Positions 18,501-37,699 of a stretch of 64,000 bases of DNA are shown one piece after another. The stretch comes from Squalus acanthias. Lineage: Eukaryota. The translations under genes were made by a program, and so were the position numbers. The stretch spans positions 31,746,001-31,810,000 of the forward strand of contig CM059432.1 in NCBI GenBank assembly GCA_030390025.1, in the 5' to 3' direction. The notes beneath the pieces were generated by a model, which worked only from the letters and a program-made list of their open reading frames with translations, searched no databases and was not told the origin of the DNA. The stretch's first letter is position 1, and every line of letters begins with the position of its first letter.

Positions 18501-20700
18501 ACTTACTTTACCCTATCCCAATAAAATGTTTAACCTCTATCCTTCAGGACCGTATACCACTGCTGTGATACTTCTGTTTTAAAGTCATCCTTCTGGCTTC
18601 TCAGACTGTGATTTGTCATTTTATTTTGTGTGCTTGTGCTAACTAGGACCTGAGTTGAGACTGCCCAAAATCATTTTTGTCAGACTTGCAGCCAGAAAAG
18701 AGATGAAACTTTAACTCTATTGCAGTAATCTTCCAGAGGTCAAAGGCCAGTTTGGTAATCTACTGTGTCACTTAGTCCCATCTGTGTTTTTTTTTAAAAG
18801 GTGCATATTTTTTTTTGCTGGTCACTGGCAATCATTACTGACTGTGTTTCCATTTTGTCAGTGAACCAACAATTAATCCTTGAAAATTTGAGTTGTAATA
18901 ATGTTGATCACTAAATTTAAACAGGCATGTTATAACCAGTTTAAAAAAAAAAGTTAGCATGTAGAATGCTTTGCCACAGGGAGTACTTGAGGCAGAGGCC
19001 ATTGCCTCTTAAGGAAACAGTTGAAGTAGTGGACGATACAAGGCTATGGGGGAGAGAGCAGGGCAGTGGGATGAGTTTTGGAGCAGCAATAAACTGGCAC
19101 AAATGGACCAAATGGCCACCTGATGTGCTCTAAACTTCTATGGTTTCTGTCTAGTGTAAATGGAATGGTGAGTGGATAGTTCCTCACAACCAACTAGTCC
19201 AAACACACACAATTATGCTATGCTTATTTCCACTTATGAGTTATTGAGTCAGCTCACTTGTGGAAATATTTATAATTCTCCAACTCAAGTATGTGTTTAT
19301 TTAAATAAAAAATAAAGTATGCATGGCATGACATCGTGCCTGCATTGGGTTCCACTGAGTAATATTAGTCTCATGATTGCATTCCTTGTCAATACTGAAT
19401 GTCCTTTTTGAAGCTTTTGATGCAGGCTTGCATTTCCTGAATATGATTTCCTAACGGCTTACAATGCTTGACATTTATAAAGTGGTGTTAGATCGATGTA
19501 TGGAGCTATTGTTCGGATACTAAAACTAGGAGTCCTATCGCTGGGTTTTGGACATTCCGTATTAGATTAAGTGGGTCACACTAGAGGAAGCTTAGAATTT
19601 GGTGCAGTAATGCTTTATGATGTATTTACCTCTGTGTACCAGTGACGCTGACTAACGGAAACTCCGGTACTGGGCCAACCTATTTATTTTATTGATGGGC
19701 TGTCCAGTTCAGTTGATTCTGATTCCTAGGATGGCTATTTGGATTGTTGTATCCCAATTTAATTGCAGAATCGCTTCAATGGGAACAAGTTCTGCAATAT
19801 AGTCTTTTACCTAGGTGGTGGACTCAGACCTGCAGAAAGATTTGCAGGTGTGTATTTGGTCAAAAACTTTTTACTGCACCTAGTAGCATCTTATAGCACA
19901 GAAGGAGGCCATTCAGCCCATCATGCTGGTGACAGCTCTTTAGAAACATAGAAGATAGGTGCAGGAGTAGGCCTTTCGGCCCCTCGAGCCTGTTCCGCCA
20001 TTTAATGAGATCATGGCTGATCATCCAAATTCAGTACCCTGTCCCTGCTTTCTCCCCATATCCCTTGATCCCTTTAACCTTAAGAAATATATCTAACTCC
20101 TTCTTGAATATATTTAATGAATTGGCCTCAACTGCCTTCTGTGGTAGAGAATTCCACAGGTTCACCACTCTCTGGGTGAAGAAATTCCTCCTCATCTCAG
20201 TCCTAAATGGCTTACCCCTTATCCTTAGACTGTGACCCCTGGTTCTGGACTCCTCCTGCCATCGGGAACATCCTTCCTGCATCTAGTCTGTCTAGTCCTG
20301 TTAGAATTGTATAAGTTTCAATGAGATCCCCTCTCATTCTTCTAAACTCTAGCGAATATAAGCCTAATTGACCCAATCTCTCTTCATATGTCATTCCCGC
20401 CATCCCAGGTATCAGTCTGGTGAATCTTTGCTGTACTCCCTCCATGGCAAGAACATCCTTCCTCAGATAAGGTGACCAAAACTGCACACAATACTCCAGG
20501 TGTGGTCTCACCAAGGCCCTGTACAACTGCAGCAAGACATCCTTGCTCCTGTACTTGAATCCTCTTGCTATGAAGGCCAACATACCATTTGCCTTCTTAA
20601 CCGTCTGCTGCACCTGCATGCTTACCTTCAGCGACTGGTGCACAAGGACACCCAGGTCTTGTTGCACTTCCCCTTTTCCCAATCTATTGCCGTTCAGATA

Positions 20701-23700
20701 AAGCAGTTCGGGAGGATTTAAACTAATATGGCAGGGGAATGGGAACCTATGTAGCGAAACAGGGGGAAGTAATATGCAGTCAGAAACAAATGTTAGAAGG
20801 GTGAGAAACAATAGGGGAAGGCCGAGTAAACAAAGGCAAGAAACACAAAGGGCCATACTAAATCATAAGTCTAAAAGGACAAAGGATGTTAATAAAACAA
20901 GCCTAAAGGCTCTGTGTCTTAATGCAAGGAGTATCCGTAATAAGGTGGATGAATTGACTGTGCAAATAGATGTTAACGGATACGATGTGATTGGGATTAC
21001 AGAGACGTGGCTCCAGAACAATCAAGGCTGGGAACTGAACATCCAGGGGTATTCAACATTCAGAAAGGATAGAATAAAAGGAAAAGGGGGTGGGGTAGCA
21101 TTGCTGGTTAAAGAGGAGATTAATGCAATAGCTAGGAAGGACATCAGCTTGGAGGATGTGGAATCAATATGGGTTGAGCTGCAGAACACCAAAGGGCAGA
21201 AAACGTTAGTGGGAGTTGTGTACAGACCTCCAAACAGCAGTAGTGAGGTGGGGGAGGGTATGAAACAGGAAATCAGAGGTGCGTGCAAAAAAGGCACGGC
21301 AGTTATCATGGGTGACTTTAATATGCATATAGATTGGGCTACTCAAACTGGAAGCAATACGGTGGAGGAGGATTTCCTGGAGTGTTTAAGGGATGGTTTC
21401 CTAAACCAATATGTTGAGGAACCAACTCGAGGGGAGGCCATCCTGGACTGGGTGTTGTGTAATGAGGAGGGACTAATCAGCAATCTTGTGGTACGAGGCC
21501 CCCTGGGGAAGAGTGACCATAGTATGGTGGAGTTCTACATTAGGATGGAGAAGGAAACAGTTAAGTCAGAGACCATGGTCCAGAACTTAAATAAGGGCAA
21601 CTTTGAGGGTATGAGGCGTGAATTGGCGAGGTTAAATTGGCAAGCGATATTTAAGGGGCTATCAGTGGAAGGGCAATGGCAGACATTTAGAGATCGCATG
21701 GATGAACTACAACAATTGTACATCCCGGTCTGGCGTAAAAATAAAAAAGGGAAGGTGGCTCAACCATGGCTAACAAGGGAAATCAGGGATAGTATTAAAA
21801 CCAAGGAATTTGCATACAAATTGGCCAGAAGTAGCAGCAAACCCGGGGACTGGGAGAACTTCAAAACTCAGCAGAGGAGGACGAAGGGTTTGATTAGGGC
21901 AGGGAAAATAAAATATGAAAGGAAGCTTGCAGAGAACATTAAAATGGACTGCAAAAGCTTCTATAAATATGTAAAAAGAAAGAGGTTAGTAAAAACAAAC
22001 GTAGGTCCCCTGCAGTCGGAAACAGGGGAAGTCGTAATGGGGAACAAGGAAATGGCAGCTCAATTGAACAAGTACTTTGGTTCGGTGTTTACTGTGGAGG
22101 ACACACACAATCTGCCGGAAATAAAAGGGGTCAGAGGATCTGGTAAGAGGGAGGAGCTGAGGGAAATCCTTATTAGTCGGGAAAAGGTATTGGGGAAATT
22201 GATGGGACTGAAGGCTGAAAAATCCCCGGGGCCTGATGGTCTGCATCCCAGAGTACTTAAGGAGGTGGCCTTGGAAATAGTGGATGCATTGACGATCATT
22301 TTCCAACATTCCTTAGACTCTGGATCAGTTCCGATGGAGTGGAGGGTGGCCAATGTAACCCCTCTTTTTAAAAAAGGAGGGAGGGAGAAAGCAGGGAATT
22401 ATAGACCGGTCAGCCTGACATCGGTCGTGGGTAAAATGATGGAAGCAATTATTAAAGATGTCATAACAGACCATTTGGAAAGTGGCGACATGATAGGTCC
22501 AAGTCAGCATGGATTTGTGAAAGGGAAATCATGCTTGACAAATCTTCTGGAATTTTTTGAGGATGTTTCCAATAGGGTGGACAGGGGGGAACCAGTAGAT
22601 GTGGTGTATTTGGACTTTCAGAAGGCCTTCGACAAGGTCCCACACAAGAGATTGGTGAGCAAAGTTAAAGCACATGGGATTGGGGGTAATGTGTTGACGT
22701 GGATTGAGAACTGGTTGGCACACAGGAAGCAAAGAGTAGGAGTAAATGGGTACTTTTCAGAATGGCAGGCAGTGACCAGCGGGGTACCGCAGGGTTCGGT
22801 GCTGGGACCCCAGCTGTTTACATTATATATTAATGATTTGGACGAAGGGATTAAATGTAATATCTCCAAATTTGCGGATGACACTAAATTGGGAGGCAGT
22901 GTGAACAATGAGGAGGATGCTAGGAGGCTACAGAGTGACTTGGACAGGTTGGGTGAATGGGCAAATGTATGGCAGATGAAGTACAATGTGGATAAATGTG
23001 AGGTTATCCACTTTGGTGGTAAAAATAGAGAGGCGGACTATTACCTGAATGGTGGCAGATTAGGGAAAGGGGACGTGCAACGAGACCTGGGCGTCATGGT
23101 ACATCAGTCACTGAAGGTGGGAATGCAAGTGCAGCAGGCAGTCAAGAAAGCAAACGGAATGATGGCCTTCATAGCAAGGGGATTTGAGTACAGGAGTAGG
23201 GACGTGATGCTACAGTTGTACAGGGCCTTGGTGAGGCCACACCTGGAGTATTGTGCGCAGTTTTGGTCTCCTAACTTAAGGAAGGACATTCTCGCTATTG
23301 AGGGAGTGCAGCGAAGGTTCACTAGATTGATTCCTGGGATGGCCGGACTGACATATCAAGAAAGATTGGGTCAACTGAACTTGTATCCTCTGGAGTTCAG
23401 AAGAATGAGGGGGGATCTTATAGAGACATTTAAAATCCTGACTGGTTTAGACAAATTAGATGCGGGCAGAATGTTCCCAATGGTGGGGAAAACTAGAACC
23501 AGGGGTCACAGTCTAAGGATTAAGGGGAAGCCATTTAGGACTGAGCTGAGGAGGAACTTCTTCACCCAGAGAGTGGTGAATCTATGGAATTCTCTTCCAC
23601 AGAAGGTTGTTGAGGCCAGTTCGCTAAATATATTCAAAAGGGAGTTAGATATAACACTCACAACTAAGGGGATCAAGGGGTATGGCGAGAAAGCAGGAAT

Positions 23701-23803
23701 GGGGTACTGAAGTAGCATGTTCAGCCATGAACGCATTGAATGGCGGTGCAGGCTCGAAGGACCGAATGGTCTACTCCTGTACCTATTTTCTATGTTTCTA
23801 TGT
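20701..23803 (+). mobile_element. Young 5'-truncated CR1 inserted in inverted orientation into the host CR1
   Basis: Starts in the last ORF1 codons (AVREDLN*) and ends in a (TTTCTATG)n tail; host RT sequence resumes at 23804 with a short target deletion. Confidence 0.9.
20774..23710 (+). CDS. CR1 ORF2: APE endonuclease + reverse transcriptase, uninterrupted 978 aa
   Basis: NARS, ITETW, YRPP, GDFN, SDH (APE); [37 protein letters not shown] (RT); the frame is open upstream to the insertion junction. Confidence 0.93.
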   Translation: MQSETNVRRVRNNRGRPSKQRQETQRAILNHKSKRTKDVNKTSLKALCLNARSIRNKVDELTVQIDVNGYDVIGITETWLQNNQGWELNIQGYSTFRKDRIKGKGGGVALLVKEEINAIARKDISLEDVESIWVELQNTKGQKTLVGVVYRPPNSSSEVGEGMKQEIRGACKKGTAVIMGDFNMHIDWATQTGSNTVEEDFLECLRDGFLNQYVEEPTRGEAILDWVLCNEEGLISNLVVRGPLGKSDHSMVEFYIRMEKETVKSETMVQNLNKGNFEGMRRELARLNWQAIFKGLSVEGQWQTFRDRMDELQQLYIPVWRKNKKGKVAQPWLTREIRDSIKTKEFAYKLARSSSKPGDWENFKTQQRRTKGLIRAGKIKYERKLAENIKMDCKSFYKYVKRKRLVKTNVGPLQSETGEVVMGNKEMAAQLNKYFGSVFTVEDTHNLPEIKGVRGSGKREELREILISREKVLGKLMGLKAEKSPGPDGLHPRVLKEVALEIVDALTIIFQHSLDSGSVPMEWRVANVTPLFKKGGREKAGNYRPVSLTSVVGKMMEAIIKDVITDHLESGDMIGPSQHGFVKGKSCLTNLLEFFEDVSNRVDRGEPVDVVYLDFQKAFDKVPHKRLVSKVKAHGIGGNVLTWIENWLAHRKQRVGVNGYFSEWQAVTSGVPQGSVLGPQLFTLYINDLDEGIKCNISKFADDTKLGGSVNNEEDARRLQSDLDRLGEWANVWQMKYNVDKCEVIHFGGKNREADYYLNGGRLGKGDVQRDLGVMVHQSLKVGMQVQQAVKKANGMMAFIARGFEYRSRDVMLQLYRALVRPHLEYCAQFWSPNLRKDILAIEGVQRRFTRLIPGMAGLTYQERLGQLNLYPLEFRRMRGDLIETFKILTGLDKLDAGRMFPMVGKTRTRGHSLRIKGKPFRTELRRNFFTQRVVNLWNSLPQKVVEASSLNIFKRELDITLTTKGIKGYGEKAGMGY

Positions 23804-25381
23804 CTTCCTGTTTTTGCCACCAAAGTGGATAACCTCGCATTTATCCACATTATACGGCATCTGCCCAATCATTCAACCTGTCCAAATCATACTGGAGTTT
23901 CTCTGCATCCTCCTCACAGCGCACACGCCCACCCAGCTTTGTATCATCTGCAAACTTGGAGATATTACATCTAGTTCACTTGTCTAGATCGTTAATATAT
24001 ATTGTGAATAGCTGGGGTCCTAGCACCGATCCCTGCGGTACCCCACTAGTCACTGCCTGCCACTTGGAAAAAGACCTGTTTATTCCAACTCTTTGCTTCC
24101 TGTCTGCCAACCAGTTCTCTATCCAAGTCAGTACCTTACCCCCAATCCCATGTGCTTGAACTTTTCACGCTAATCTCTTATGCGGGACCTTATTGAAAGC
24201 CTTCTGAAAGTCCAAATACACCACATCCACTGGTTCTCCCTTATCTATTCTACCAGTTACATCATCAAAAAATTCCAGTAGATCAGTCGAGCATGATTTA
24301 CCTTTTGTAAAACCATGTTGACTTTGTCCGATCCTGTCACTGTTTTCCAAGTGCTCTGCTATTACATCTTTTATAATGGACTCGAGCATTTTCCCCACTA
24401 CCGATGTCAGGCTTACCGGTCTATAATTCCCCGTTTTCTCTCTACCACCTTTTTTAAATAGTGGGGTTACATTAGCTACCCTCCAATCCATGGGAACTGT
24501 TCCAGAGTCTATAGAATTTTGGAAGATGACCAGCAATGCATCTACTATTTCTAGGGCCACTTCCTTAAGTACCCTAGGATGTAGATTATCAGGCCCTGGG
24601 GATTTATCGGCCTTCAATCCCGTCAATTTCCCTAACACCATTTCGCTACAAATACTGATTTAATTCAATTCCTCCCTCATTAGACCCTATGTTCCCTGAC
24701 ATCTCTGGGAGGTTATTTGTGTCCTCCTTTGTGAAGACAGAACCAAAGTATGTATTTAATTGGTCTGCCATTTCTTTGTTCCCCATTATAAACTCCCCTG
24801 ATTCTCACTGCAAGGGACCTACGCTTGACTTCACCAATCGTTTTCTCTTCACATATCTATAGAAGCTTTTACAGTCAGTTTTTATGTTCCCTGCAAGCTT
24901 ACTCTCATTCTATTTTCCCCCTCTTAATTAATCCCGTTGTCCTCCTTTGCTGAATCCTAAACTGCTCCCAATCCTCAGGTTTGCTGCTTTTTCTGGCCAA
25001 TTTATATGTCCTCTCCTTGGATCTTATGCTATCCCTAATTTCCCTTGTTAGCCACGGTTGAGTCACTTTTTTTATGCCAAACAGGGATGAACAAATTCTG
25101 TAGTTCATCCATGTGATCTTTAAATGTTTGCCATTGCCTATCCACCGTCAACCCTTTAAGTAACGCTCCCCAAACCATCCTAGCCAACTCGCGCCTCATA
25201 CCATCGTAGTTTCCTTTATTTAAATTCAGGACCCTGGTCTGTGTCAACTACTTCACTCTCCATCTTAATGAAGAATTCGATCATATTATGATCGCTCCTC
25301 CCCAAGGGGCCTCGCACAACAAGATTGCTAATTAATCCTTTCTCATTACATAATACCCAGTCTAAGATGGCCTGATCACTA

Positions 25382-25737
25382 CGATAGCAAAATACTGCAG
25401 ATGCTGGAAATCCGAAATAACAACAGAAAACGCTGGAAAAACTCAGCAGGCCAGGCAGCATCCGTGGAGAGAGAAACAGAGTTAACGTTTCAAGTCGAAG
25501 ACCCTTCGTCAGAACTGGAAAAAAGCAGGAAATGAAATAGATTTAAAGCAAGTATAATGCTGGGAAAAGGGGGAGGGGATGAAAGAACAAAGGGGAAGGT
25601 CAGTGGTAGTATAGAAGGCAGGAGAGATTGAGAGACATTAAGAGATATTCAAGGCGAGAGGAGGTGGTAATGTGACAGGTTGAGGCTAGATGAGGTGTGA
25701 AATGCGCTGGCGGAATGAAGGACAGCTGCCAGCTTCA
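25382..25737 (-). mobile_element. Penelope-type short insertion with hammerhead
   Basis: 13-bp TSD GGCCTGATC(A/T)CTA at 25369-25381 / 25738-25750; interrupts host CR1 ORF2. Confidence 0.75.
25480..25516 (-). ncRNA. Minimal type I hammerhead ribozyme motif
   Basis: AGUU-CUGACGA-A-GGGUC(UUC)GACUU-GAAA-CGUU-AACU: core intact, stems I and II pair, palindromic AACGUU in place of stem III. Confidence 0.7.
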
Positions 25738-26453
25738 GGCCTGATCTCTAGTTGGTTCCTCGACATATTGGTCCAGGAAACCATCCCGTATACACTCTAG
25801 GAATTCCTCCTCCACAGTATTGTTACTAATTTGGTTAGCCCAATCTATATGTAGATTAAAGTCACCCATGATAACTGCTGTGCCCTTATTGCACGTGTCT
25901 CTAATTTCCCGTTTAATGCCATCCCCAACCTCAGCATTACTGTGTGGGGGTCTGTATACAACTCCCACTAACGTTTTTTGCCCCTTGGTATTTCTCAGCT
26001 CTACCCATACAGATTCCACATCATCAGAGCTAATATCCTTCCTTACTGTGTTAATTATTGTGTTAATCTCCTCTTTAACCAGCAATGCTACCCCACCTCC
26101 TTTTCCTTTTTGCCTGTCCTTCCTGAATATTGAATACCCCTGGATGTTGAATTCCCAGCCTTGGTCACCCTGGAGCCATGTCTCCGTAATCCCAATTATA
26201 TCATATCCGTTTACATCTATTTGCGCAGCTAATTCATCCACCTTATTACGAATGCTCCTCGCATTAAGACACAAAGCCTTCAGGCTTGTTTTTTTAACAC
26301 TTAGTCCTTTTAGAATTATTATTTACTGTAGCCCTGTTTGATTTACACCCTTGATTTCTCTGCCTTCCCTTTTGCTTTTCTCCTTCCTGTCTTTTTCTAT
26401 CCTTGCTTCCCTTTCCTCTGTCTCCCTGCACAGGTTCCTAACCCCCTGCCATT

Positions 26454-27411
26454 TTAGTTTAAACCCCAACAGCACTAGCAAACACTCCCCCTAGGACATC
26501 GGTCCTGGTCCCGCCCAGGTGCAAACCGTCCAGTTTGTACTGGTCCCACCTCCCCCAGAACCGGTTCCAATGTCCCAGGAATTTGAATCCCTCCCGCTTG
26601 CACCATTCCTCTAGCCACGTATTCATCTGAAATATCCTTCTATTTCTACTCTGACTAGCACGTGGCACTGGTAGCAATCCTGAGATTACTACCTTTTTGA
26701 GGTCCTATTTTTTAATTTATCTCCTAACTCCCTATATTCAGCTTTTAGGACCTCATCCTGTTTTTTACTTATCGTTGGTACCTATATGCACCACGACAAC
26801 TGGCTGTTCACCCTCCCCCTCCAGAATGCCCTGCAGCCGCCCCGAGACATCCTTGCCCCTTGCACCAGGGAGGCAACATACCATCCTGGAGTCTCGTTTG
26901 CGGCCGCAGAAACGCCTATCTATTCCCCTTACAATAGAATCCCCTATCACTATAGCTCTCCCGCTCTTTTCCCTCCCGTCCTGTGCAGCAGAACCACCCA
27001 CGGTGCCAGGAAGTTGGCTGCTGCTGCCTTCCCCCAGATAAGCCATCTCCCTCAACAATATCCGAAGTGGTATATCTGTTTGAGAGGGGGATGGCCACAG
27101 GGGACCCCTACACTACCTGTCTGCGCCTACTATTCTGCCCGGCGGTCACCCATTCCCTTCCTGCCTGTGAAACCTTTACCTGCGGTGTGACCAACTCATT
27201 AAACGTGCTATCCACGATGTCCTCAGCATCGCGAATGCTCCAGTATGTATCCATTCGCAGCTCTAGCGCCGCAATGCGGTCTGCCAGTAGCTGCAGCTGG
27301 ATACACTTCCCGCGCACATGGTTGTCAGGGATCGTCAGGGACACAGGAAGTGTCCCTGATTTCCCACATAGTGCAGGAGGAGCATGCCATGGGGCCGAGC
27401 TGTGCTGCCAT
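26454..27411 (-). pseudogene. CR1 ORF1 (zinc finger/coiled coil + SGNH esterase), frameshifted
   Basis: MAAQLGPMACSSC..., IVIGDSIVRG, CLPGA, VVVHIGTND and DGLHL SGNH blocks. Confidence 0.85.
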
Positions 27412-27877
27412 GACTTACCCTTTAATTAATTTAAATTAAATCAATACCACTAATTACACAATTAAATGATATACTCAAGGGCCCTTGTTTACTCGCACTC
27501 CCCGCTACACAACAGAGACCTTAGAAAGTATAACCACAAAAATTAAGACCTTCTAAACTTTATAAACTATTAACCTTAACTGTCAAACTATAGAGTAGTA
27601 TAAATACTCACCTGGCCGTACTCACCCAATCAGCTGCTTCCTCTTGCCTGCGCCACTTTTTGAATCATGACGTGGCTCTGGAACGCTGTCGCCGCTGGTC
27701 TCTGAGATTGGTAAGTCTCTGTATATATTAAAAAAAGCCCACGAAAGTGAGTTTAAATACTCACTGTTCTCTCCTGTTGCTCCCGACACCGGCCTCTGTA
27801 TATATAAAAAAAAAAGCCTGTACTTACAGAGACTCCACAGGGGGAGTCAGAGTAGGTCTGTACTTACAGACACTCCA

Positions 27878-28839: not shown

Positions 28840-29557
28840 ACATAGAAACATAGAAAATAGGTGCAGGAGTAGACCATTCGGTCCTTCGAGCCTGCACCGC
28901 CATTTAATGCGTTCATGGCTGAACATGCTACCTCAGTACCCCATTCCTGCTTTCTCGCCATACCCCTTGATCCCCCTAGTTGTGAGTATTATATCTAACT
29001 CCCTTTTGAATATATTTAGCGAACTGGCCTCAACAACCTTCTGTGGTAGAGAATTCCACAGATTCACCACTCTCTGGGTGAAGAAGTTCCTCCTCATCTC
29101 AGTCTTAAATGGCTTCCCCTTTATCCTTAGACTGTGACCCCTGGTTTTAGTTTTCCCTAACATTGGAAACATTCTGCCTGCATCTAATTTGTCTAAACCA
29201 GTCAGGATTTTAAACGTCTCTATAAGATCCCCCCTCATTCTTCTGAACTCCAGAGGATACAAGTTCAGTTGATCCAGTCTTTCTTGATATGTCAGTCTGG
29301 CCATCCCAGGAATCAATCTAGTGAACCTTCGTTGCACTCCCTCAATAGCAAGAATGTTCTTCCTCAAGTTAGGAGACCAAAACTGTACACAATACTCCAG
29401 GTGTGGCCTCACCAAGGCCCTGTACAACTGTAGCATCACCTCCCTACTCCTGTACTCAAATCCCCTTGCTATGAAGGCCATCATGCCATTTGCTTTCTTG
29501 ACTGCCTGCTGCACTTGCCTTCCCACCTTCAGTGACTGATGTACCATGACGCCCAGG
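28840..29557 (-). mobile_element. Young CR1 3' fragment, same subfamily as 20701-23803
   Basis: Open 204-aa ORF almost identical to the ORF2 C-terminus at 23097-23710; same 3' UTR. Confidence 0.92.
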
Positions 29558-31561
29558 TAGAATAGGTTCCTAGCACACTCTGACGACGTTCACATGAAAA
29601 ACTAACCACCTAGTTGCCTGCAATTGCTGCCTGCAGCCATTTTCTTCCTTAAGCCCTTTGGAAAACTAACTTCTGCAGTAGACTTGAGCATATGGAGGTC
29701 CTAGCGCTGCCTTGTTATATTTATTTGTATTGTCTTTGGAAAGTTAATGTTTGTAAGGAATTTAAGCATATTGTTCTGGTGACCTCAAGCTGCAAGAGGA
29801 AACCTCCAGATTCAATTGCCGGCGGGTTATTCAACTGCAGGGGCATTGTAGATGCGCCTGATCCTATTATTGCACGCACATTATCCAGGAAGGGTTTATT
29901 GATGGTGACCAAGACCAGGAAAATCGTGGTTGTCTTTTCACTTCTCCATAACCCAGGGCCACTGAAGAAAATTATGTAGTGCCCCAAGTGCCAACTAGGC
30001 TGCGATCAGTTAACTTAGCACAGACTATTTATAAAAACTGTATATTGTATGTAATAGTCATATTTCTTAATGAAGGACATTTAAAGTTTTCGCTTTACAT
30101 TCAGTAGAGATTGATGTAATTGTTTTACAGCTAAGTGTGACATCAAACGTGATGATATACTGCATTGTTTGACAGATGCTACACTAGCGTCTGTTTCTTT
30201 CTGTGGTGGGAGAATATAGGATAATCTAGAGATTGTGGGTAACGGTTTAGTGTAAGGTTTTTTTTTACAAAGCCACTGGCATTATCCGAGCTGCTCAAGT
30301 GTTCTTGACTTGCTGTGCGTCATATCTCCAAAATCTCCTGTCGCACCAACCCTGTGACTCCATATAATCTCACCTCCTGTGCCAGCTATATCATTTTACC
30401 CTTGCACTCCGTATTCTGACTGGGTAGAATTGAGAACGTTTAAAAATAATACACTAATACAGATATTGGGGGTTTGCCGCAATGTAATCTTGGTTCTGTT
30501 CATTTTCAAGATTTACACTGCCATCTGAGACACCTGAATGTATGTTGTCTATAGGCTATTTGAATGTAAGAGCATTACAGTCGCGCCTGATCTTCTCGCT
30601 CAACGCCCACACATTCAAAACACTTCCAGCAGGATTGGTAGATAGTGATTGGAGCTAATTTCTGTTATTGCTATTGACTGATAATCACTGCCAGACGGTT
30701 TGGTGATAATGCATTATAGATAAGTGTGAGGTCAAACCTAATGATATGCAGCATCGTGTGACTGGTGCTGTAGAAGCATCTTTTTTTTTGTCGCAGGACA
30801 ATATGAGATATCTAGGGAGGTGTAGGGGGTTCTATATTTGAGTATTTGATTATATTTTTCTCTGTATATGAAATTTACAGTGAAACAATCTCCAGTCTAA
30901 TGTCCTAGTTACTGATGTGTGACTCCAGGATCTATTTGATTACTAAACCACCTTATTAGTTACAGATTTTCTTTGTGAATTTCATGTTCATCATGGTATT
31001 GGAAATGTCTGCTTCAAAGACGCCCAGGTCAGGTTTAGTATGATTGGATGCAAACTAAAGCTCCATCTACTCTGGCCAACCCTCAGAAGAGCACACTCTG
31101 ACATTCTTCTTTTTCTTGCTCTAGCCATGCTGTCTTCTGTGTGTACAGTTTCCGTTAGGGGTAGTTTAGTGTTGTGGGGCCATGCCTAGAAGACTCTTCA
31201 ATCTGCCTTCATTTTTCATCTCTCCAACCTGAGCTGGATTTGAACCCAGGCCTCTGAGATGAAAGGATGATATCGAACTCACCACATCACTCAGCTCAAT
31301 GTTTTTATGAGGGTGCATGTGCATCATATATATATTAGGATGTTGGTGTCACTGGCAAGGCCAACATTTGTTGCCCATTCCTAGTTGCCCTGTGTTTGAT
31401 CCAACTGAGTGGCTTACTCGACCCCTTCACTGGGTGTGGGACTGGAGTCAAGTATAGACCAAACCAGGTAAGGATGACAGGTTTCCTTCCCTAAAGGATA
31501 TTACTGAACCAGTTAGGTGCTTACAACAATCTGATAGCTTCATGGTCAATTTTCTTTTTAC

Positions 31562-36945: not shown

Positions 36946-37699
36946 TCGTTTCTAGTTCACACTCAGTATATTTTAGGAACCTAAATTGCATACCTTAAAT
37001 GAAATATTTTAATCCCTAGTTCGTGTGCACTAATATCCCTGAATCAGCAATCTTGTTGGAAGATCCTGGTGGTGGCTGGTTTTCGAAATGAGACTTTTGG
37101 CGCTCCGTATCGGACAACAAACTCTGCTCAGTTGGTAGCATTCTCACCTCTGGGTCAGGAGGTTGTGGCGTCAATCTCCACTCCAGGGCATATGTCCAGC
37201 ACATTATTGAGGCAGCGCTGCGTTGTGTTGTAAGGCGGTACCGACCTTTGGATGAGATGTTTAAACTAAAGCTATCTGCCTACTCAGGTGGATGTTCAAT
37301 CTGTGGGAGGACATTAGGGTTAGGTTGGTATTCTTGGAGGATGAGATCAAGTGGCCCGAAAAGCTGCCTTCATCTGATCAATAAATATGGTGTAGAACTG
37401 GTTAGCTGAAAAGTTGAGCTTCATCCACACAAGATTTGTATTTGCCTTTTGCAGCAATGTGCTATTCATAGCATTGACATCCCTCCGCTACATTTAAAAA
37501 AGGTAAAAATATATTAAATCCCTTTAGCCAGTCTTTGTAGCACATTAATCAAAATTTCTTAAATAATGGAGATTATATTCACAAAAATTGAGTAGTATTT
37601 TATTTAAAAATGAATTAGATTTCCTGCTTCTGATTGCTTTCCAAGGATAAGTGCTAGAAAGTGCATGAGTGTGAATGTTGGTTGAGGATCGAATGAAGT

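Follow-up and report, generated by a model that had tools for sequence, protein, structure and literature searches.

A putative −1 frameshift signal at the ORF1/ORF2 junction of CR1 retrotransposons

How ribosomes reach the second open reading frame (ORF2) of a LINE RNA has been called an open question (PMC3894237, PMC5009743), with reinitiation as the accepted model in the available text of these sources. The window studied here, by which we mean the whole 64-kb stretch of DNA, raises the question anew for CR1, described as dominating the retrotransposons of most vertebrates (PMC13343379). It carries a young CR1 copy whose ORF1 ends on a slippery heptamer, U_UUA_AAC, directly before the stop codon, with ORF2 lying in the −1 frame. 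Based on comparisons of sequence, we consider it probable, at roughly 85%, that LINEs of the CR1 type with an esterase ORF1 express ORF2 by −1 programmed frameshifting, which would yield a minor ORF1-APE-RT fusion protein.

The junctions of two CR1 copies

The window elements are CR1, as placed by their ORF1 homologues and by a by-eye likeness to CR1-labelled consensuses, and comprise the following features.

20699..23803, + strand: young CR1 LINE copy, 5'-truncated, inside an older opposite-strand CR1 (self-BLAST, tblastn; loose contig ends at 20697-20701)
20700..20726, + strand: ORF1 remnant, the final 8 codons KAVREDLN and then TAA (upstream continuation in phase from intact relatives)
20717..20723, + strand: U_UUA_AAC, slippery heptamer that reads as X_XXY_YYZ in the ORF1 frame (sequence reading; conservation in relatives)
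20724..20726, + strand: ORF1 stop TAA, immediately 3' of the heptamer (TAG in the metagenome loci L001 and L002; TGA in one published consensus)
20734..20737, + strand: G-run that begins at +11 from the heptamer, a putative stimulator (recurrent position across junctions)
20728..20754, + strand: 8-codon ATG-started ORF in the third frame, just past the ORF1 stop (frame starting at 20692)
20774..20776, + strand: earliest ATG of the ORF2 frame, unconserved (T20775G in a diverged contig, runs X14 and X6)
20717..23710, + strand: ORF2 in the −1 frame, with a linker of ~65 residues, APE endonuclease and RT (Pfam)
20966-21520, + strand: APE endonuclease, Pfam match; its first motif lies near 20912
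22379-23038, + strand: RT domain of the young copy (Pfam)
23711..23803, + strand: 3' UTR of the young copy (predicted terminal hairpin 23745-23783; 8-bp tandem tail 23783-23803)
26454..27411, − strand: decayed ORF1 of the host CR1, with zinc finger, coiled coil and SGNH esterase (own heptamer 26463-26457, then TAA; out of phase)
23808..26466, − strand: 5' part of the host CR1 ORF2, decayed (self-BLAST/tblastn)
19941..20701, − strand: 3' part of the host CR1 ORF2 and its 3' UTR, severed by the insertion (self-BLAST/tblastn)

An earlier note on this DNA had read U_UUA_AAC in the phase of ORF1 directly before its stop, and ORF2 as the −1 frame open to 23710. Both readings hold: TTTAAAC (20717-20723) runs into TAA (20724-20726) in a phase backed by intact relatives, and the ORF2 frame runs open from 20702 to 23710 (1002 aa) and encodes APE and RT, with Exo_endo_phos and RVT_1 both exceeding the Pfam cut-off. 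The note had also taken the end of ORF1 to be visible in the copy, which is true of the heptamer and the stop, but only 8 ORF1 codons have been kept upon 5' truncation. Because the young copy starts at ~20699, the phase was read from its intact relatives. Contigs with 0-1 differences over 20699-21100 extend upstream into the final helix of ORF1, keeping the reading phase of the remnant; the contigs examined came from 4 of 21 listed sequencing runs, and a near-identical upstream-extending contig was present in 2 of these 4. Among the 40 of 70 rows listed for these contigs, there were no variants in 20705-20737 and many from 20738 onward. The sequencing-run matches at ≥0.9 of words come from several organisms.

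The older host copy retains the heptamer, the TAA and KLKWQGVRNLCRET, the ORF2 peptide upstream of ATG 20774 that had been claimed as conserved there, but its ORF1 frame is broken: the copy is 4 nt shorter just upstream of the heptamer, and the frame stops inside it. This loss looks private, as the closest ORF1 homologues end in GEDLN or GEGLN. Its ORF2 frame contains a single stop, at codon 47. The host ORF1 gave a Pfam match to Lipase_GDSL_2, and its zinc finger/coiled coil and SGNH esterase are supported by alignment, while the young copy ends in a hairpin and a short tandem tail, without poly(A). TTTAAAC followed by a stop occurs three times on both strands of the 64 kb, and two of these occurrences are the CR1 junctions; the third (37260-37269) lacks a junction context and was taken as chance. 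By eye, the 5' UTR and ORF1 start of the host copy (27160-27540, − strand) closely resemble the consensus SquAca_CR1-11 in the available part of PMC13343379.

Conservation of the heptamer across CR1 lineages

The search for DNA relatives returned four metagenome loci, two of which span the junction. L001 reads T_TTA_AAC-TAG and L002, at 31% identity, reads G_GGA_AAC-TAG, the sole DNA example of this form; in both, as in the window copy, ORF2 lies in the −1 frame and is open from the heptamer onward. L003 ends before the junction, and L004 was rejected as a distant bacterial-type esterase. Other DNA matches comprised 1 weak viral match and 3 bacterial esterases, and a plasmid search for DNA relatives gave no match.

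Published CR1-group consensuses extend the comparison. In Supplementary Table 2 of PMC13343379 (~1,000 rows, of which the first 400 bases each were used, the consensuses being error-prone), TTTAAACTA falls by eye at an ORF1/ORF2 junction in 17 of 23 places, whereas control sequences do so in 0 of 43. The controls replaced TTA by CTG, TTG, CTA, CTT or CTC, AAC by AAT, or the base before TTA by another, with TGA-stop controls left out. These published junctions come from halosaur, bowfin, coelacanth, bullfrog, alligator, crocodile, elephant shark, stingray, sawfish, catshark and dogfish, and a bearded dragon consensus carries the heptamer followed by TGA (PMC13343379); the supplement of PMC4316615, as far as available, contains mainly 3' ends. 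The junction comparison thus shows heptamer and phase, on whose conservation the earlier proposal turned, to be kept across CR1 lineages. The frameshift that had been proposed for this particular CR1 family is supported, but the feature is CR1-wide and not family-specific.

The C-termini of ORF1 proteins were examined using the esterase piece of the host copy ORF1 as query, which returned 120 homologues, 93 of them reaching the C-terminal region. Leu-Asn-stop ends 73 of these 93 (74 were counted, one being a cut-off protein), with named sources that include sharks, rays, coelacanth, sturgeon, mormyrid, frog, turtles, snake, lizard and swallow. When 34 hand-picked homologues, nearly all of them LN-ending, were aligned, every one carried the terminal Asn. 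A search with a profile built from those 34 proteins, which may slightly favour LN ends and draws on related and thus not independent sequences, listed 150 representatives at 50% identity, 111 of which reach the region, with 54 ending in LN, 9 in GN and 2 in KN. A terminal tripeptide compatible with an X_XXY_YYZ heptamer is accordingly found in 65/111 representatives, compared to 248/4329 internal positions, and 46/111 lack such an end. A quick ORF1 tree (95 rows) contains two entire esterase clades without an LN end, one of which includes an Astyanax protein and is probably L2-type. Where present, LN keeps its place at the stop even as the tail beyond the final helix changes in length by as much as 13 residues. 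As tail length varies and two esterase clades lack LN, the ORF1 fold does not need it.

The residue preceding the two final codons follows the heptamer as well. It can be encoded with a final T in 88 of 89 distinct tails ending in LN; all 9 GN-ending representatives end in QGN (Gln-Gly-Asn), with Gln preceding GN in 8/8 distinct tails, and the single KN tail also fits (1/1). The association between the preceding residue and the first base of the heptamer gave a Fisher p of 6e-11, a value that overstates the case because of kinship among the sequences. The quick tree requires 6 changes for GN and 9 for LN, of which at least 2 and at least 3, respectively, are forced by well-supported branches. 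The strongest support for frameshifting, as judged from these sequences, is this swap to the canonical G_GGA_AAC with a matching change of the preceding codon. With its fixed silent positions and the exchange between heptamer types, the conservation exceeds, by the same reckoning, what protein coding needs.

Could the Leu-Asn end instead be a protein motif, such as a C-terminal binding or degradation signal, with ORF2 started from any available downstream AUG and the heptamer as a by-product? The invariance of the terminal Asn in both alignments would suit such a motif, but the codon counts largely refute it, given that the control sequences of PMC13343379, as far as available, place none of their 43 occurrences at the junction against 17 for the heptamer, and the residue before the motif obeys a nucleotide rule. 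Furthermore, FKL, as read in the ORF2 frame, stands at the junction in ray and stork gene models and in two cut proteins. We hence regard a protein motif as very improbable. About equally improbable is that the conserved bases constitute another RNA or DNA signal, such as the binding site of a packaging protein or a splice signal joining ORF1 to ORF2. The downstream G-run, likewise conserved and with no assigned role, would be in line with such a signal, yet the two heptamer forms share only the X_XXY_YYZ pattern and the ORF1 phase, not their letters, and splice joints were absent among the contigs, which cover little upstream sequence.

Several further observations concern individual proteins. 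P0160, P0176, P0219, P0247 and P0248 form a well-supported clade in the QGN group and mostly carry Phe-Phe or Phe 1-2 residues before the stop; a heptamer of the U_UUU_UUC type could lie behind such ends. Near the same group, P0234, P0239, P0170 and P0188 show EN, FLN and SKN ends, suggesting possible further switches to G_GAA_AAC, U_UUA_AAC and A_AAA_AAC. The CR1 ORF1 proteins P0008, P0085 and P0070 are filed under Pseudomonas aeruginosa, Proteus mirabilis and a flatworm parasite, probably due to contamination with vertebrate DNA. A search for longer fused proteins gave 8 matches of little value, mostly spliced gene models. In the ray gene model P0257, which bears the name hydroxyacid oxidase 2, ORF1 and APE of a CR1 copy are fused in frame, probably via an indel in the G-run before the heptamer.

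The start of ORF2 and reinitiation as an unlikely alternative

Overlapping ORFs have been described for turtle CR1. The earlier note had named a conserved ORF2 initiator ATG as evidence that would speak against frameshifting, and we found none in contigs, host copy, L001, L002 or gene models. T20775G destroys ATG 20774 of the window copy in the diverged contig of runs X14 and X6, and in both the host copy and L001 Met is absent ahead of the first APE motif. L002 contains 63 open ORF2-frame codons before its first Met, a length reached in 0.0048 of shuffles, and the same open-frame test gave 33 codons and 0.17 of shuffles for L001. Among the junction loci, the first ORF2-frame Met lies at codon 20, 44 or 64, and in eight gene models Met residues stand 1 to 91 residues ahead of the APE motif, with no common place, the first Met of a model being 13 to 91 residues ahead. 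The ATG at 20728 was rejected as an ORF2 start, as it opens only 8 codons in the wrong frame.

These data bear on termination-reinitiation, in which ribosomes would finish ORF1 and restart near its stop (at UAAUG, a non-AUG or a downstream codon) to make a separate ORF2p, with the heptamer as part of the termination/restart signal. SART1 and L1 are reported to translate ORF2 in this way (PMC2881922, PMC3708506, PMC10275272, in their available text), and the model could draw on the in-frame ATG at 20774 of the window copy as well as on the missing frameshift stimulator in folds, G-quadruplex and pairing searches (see below). In the available consensuses of PMC13343379, UAAUG occurs in the ORF2 frame at 3/17 published junctions and UAGUG at one; reinitiation may therefore operate in some lineages or alongside. 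Against it, the stop-start UAAUG is absent in 4/4 junction loci compared, where the stop-overlapping codon is ATA, AAA, GAA or GGT, and the codon is non-AUG at 14/17 published junctions. Reinitiation furthermore gives no account of why the silent bases are fixed, why T or G precedes the final two codons or why G_GGA_AAC is swapped in, and has to contend with the lack of any Met before the APE motif in L001. On balance, we consider it unlikely, albeit less so than the protein-motif and other-signal explanations, and favor the −1 frameshift.

Comparison with known systems points to both likenesses and differences. Judged by its ORF1 of zinc finger, coiled coil and SGNH esterase, its APE-RT ORF2, its short 3' UTR with a hairpin and 8-bp tail, and its frequent 5' truncation, the element resembles the vertebrate CR1 of PMC13343379, PMC4120745 and PMC3905857, in whose available main text neither the mode of ORF2 translation nor the word frameshift is mentioned. 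With L1 and SART1 (PMC2881922, PMC3894237, PMC3708506, PMC10275272, in part), it shares a bicistronic LINE RNA, an ORF2 dependent on ORF1 translation and scarce ORF2p; however, those elements make a separate ORF2p from a spacer (L1) or UAAUG (SART1), whereas CR1 has a conserved slippery heptamer and mostly no AUG. Like retroviral gag-pol and coronavirus 1a/1b (PMC5009743, available text), CR1 places X_XXY_YYZ at the end of the structural ORF, with the polymerase ORF in the −1 frame and the same shift-prone heptamers; the same source counts U_UUA_AAC, G_GGA_AAC and A_AAA_AAC among the heptamers at which mammalian ribosomes shift most readily. Unlike these viral systems, CR1 is a non-LTR element with a G-run only, no pseudoknot or hairpin found and no protease that would cut the fusion.

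The idea of frameshifting is not new for the non-LTR class, as it has already been suggested for some elements: frameshifts were proposed for HeT-A gag (PMC5009743) and, in the +1 direction, for Paramecium groups 1-2 (PMC5405496), while the Dictyostelium elements TRE5-A and TRE3-A are described with 'two overlapping ORFs', the available text of PMC5633606 leaving frameshift unmentioned. These elements belong to other clades and hosts, and none of the proposals, as given in the text available, is built on a canonical −1 heptamer that is both conserved and swapped between types. More broadly, the available text of PMC11835228, PMC2881922, PMC5009743, PMC3708506, PMC5405496, PMC6609765, PMC3905857, PMC4120745, PMC8665684, PMC10275272 and PMC5633606 gives as mechanisms reinitiation for L1 and SART1, 2A recoding in some LINEs, and the frameshifts of HeT-A and Paramecium. 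In full-text searches we found no statement of a −1 frameshift for CR1, which Haas 1997, Kajikawa 1997, Kapitonov and Jurka 2003, Kojima 2005 or the Repbase/Dfam entries may already suggest. We thus describe, on sequence grounds, a known mechanism in a setting for which we found no description, with a strongly conserved candidate recoding signal in an ordinary CR1 copy.

Candidate stimulators and the proposed mechanism

The stimulator of a −1 frameshift is expected 5-9 nt 3' of the slip site and may be a pseudoknot, a hairpin, a long-range pairing or a motif bound by protein. The earlier note had seen no convincing one, and our searches by local folds, G-quadruplex prediction, Rfam and long-range pairing likewise gave nothing consistent. 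Folds over 77-121 nt 3' of the heptamer, calculated with a folding model without pseudoknots, had z-scores of −0.07 and 0.14 for the window copy, 0.12 for L001, 1.44 and 0.71 for L002, and −2.43 over 80 nt and −0.78 over 120 nt for the host copy. No G-quadruplex was predicted downstream of the heptamer, and an Rfam search of the junction region gave no match. The best long-range partners anywhere in the element were equalled by 13, 34, 1 and 10 of 40 shuffles.

What does recur is the G-run, which starts at +11, +11, +11 and +13 relative to the heptamer in the 4/4 junction loci, while a run of ≥4 G starting at +7 to +14 is present, by eye, in 13 of 18 published junctions in the available consensuses (PMC13343379). 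This conserved G-run may reflect glycine in the linker. Pairing of the G-rich stretch with the 3' UTR, through the pyrimidine arm of its terminal hairpin, is also possible and ranks 6th-14th in the young copy and 2nd-7th in the host copy among ~50 sites, and by eye it pairs about equally well with non-cognate crocodilian 3' UTR arms. As a separate observation, the G-rich stretch at 20729-20743 and its host counterpart at 26451-26437 resemble the 5' arm of the CR1 3' UTR hairpin, with a close likeness for amniote 3' UTRs; one protein or RNA arm might recognise both.

The gag-pol-like fusion of esterase-ORF1 with APE-RT that the earlier note had put forward draws support from the conserved phase, the heptamer swap and the unconserved ORF2 AUG, and would arise as follows. 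Ribosomes would reach the final two codons of ORF1, and most of them would stop at the next codon, producing an ORF1p of ~315 aa. A minority, probably a small one, would slip back by one base on U_UUA_AAC (G_GGA_AAC in the distant group) and enter ORF2, possibly stimulated by the adjacent stop or the G-run, to yield a fusion of ~1,310 aa that would consist of ORF1p, the variable linker, APE and RT. Such a slip would set a high ORF1p:RT ratio and tether the enzyme to the ORF1p particle, in gag-pol style. A stop directly after the heptamer is also found in Rous sarcoma virus and barley yellow dwarf virus. As LINEs need little ORF2p (PMC3894237, available text), a low slip rate from the heptamer and the adjacent stop alone could suffice.

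A wider version of this proposal, which we offer as a tentative and rather doubtful one, is that the CR1 RT across jawed vertebrates and distant relatives might be made solely as an ORF1-esterase fusion, via a −1 frameshift that would dispense with classical RNA structure and use the adjacent stop together with a G-run activated in trans, by ORF1p, a host binder of G-rich RNA or pairing with the element's own 3' hairpin arm, such that only full-length RNAs would make RT.

If CR1 does frameshift at this heptamer, the question of ORF2 translation would be answered for this LINE family, and the working RT would be a fusion with a lipid-binding esterase protein. Annotations of ORF2 that begin at the first ATG would then be wrong, and counts of intact CR1 elements as well as retrotransposition assays should take in a correctly phased ORF1. 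A recoding signal of the viral type would, moreover, turn out to be used very widely in chromosomes, apparently with no classical stimulator.

Two minor observations concern the insertion of the young copy and its kin. Its joints (20697-20701 and 23800-23808) show no target-site duplication, with a few host bases missing and short shared letters on both sides, and resemble those of an insertion of the truncated or repair type. Another young 3' fragment, at 28840-29558 (− strand), is 96% identical to the + strand copy, which indicates recent CR1 activity.
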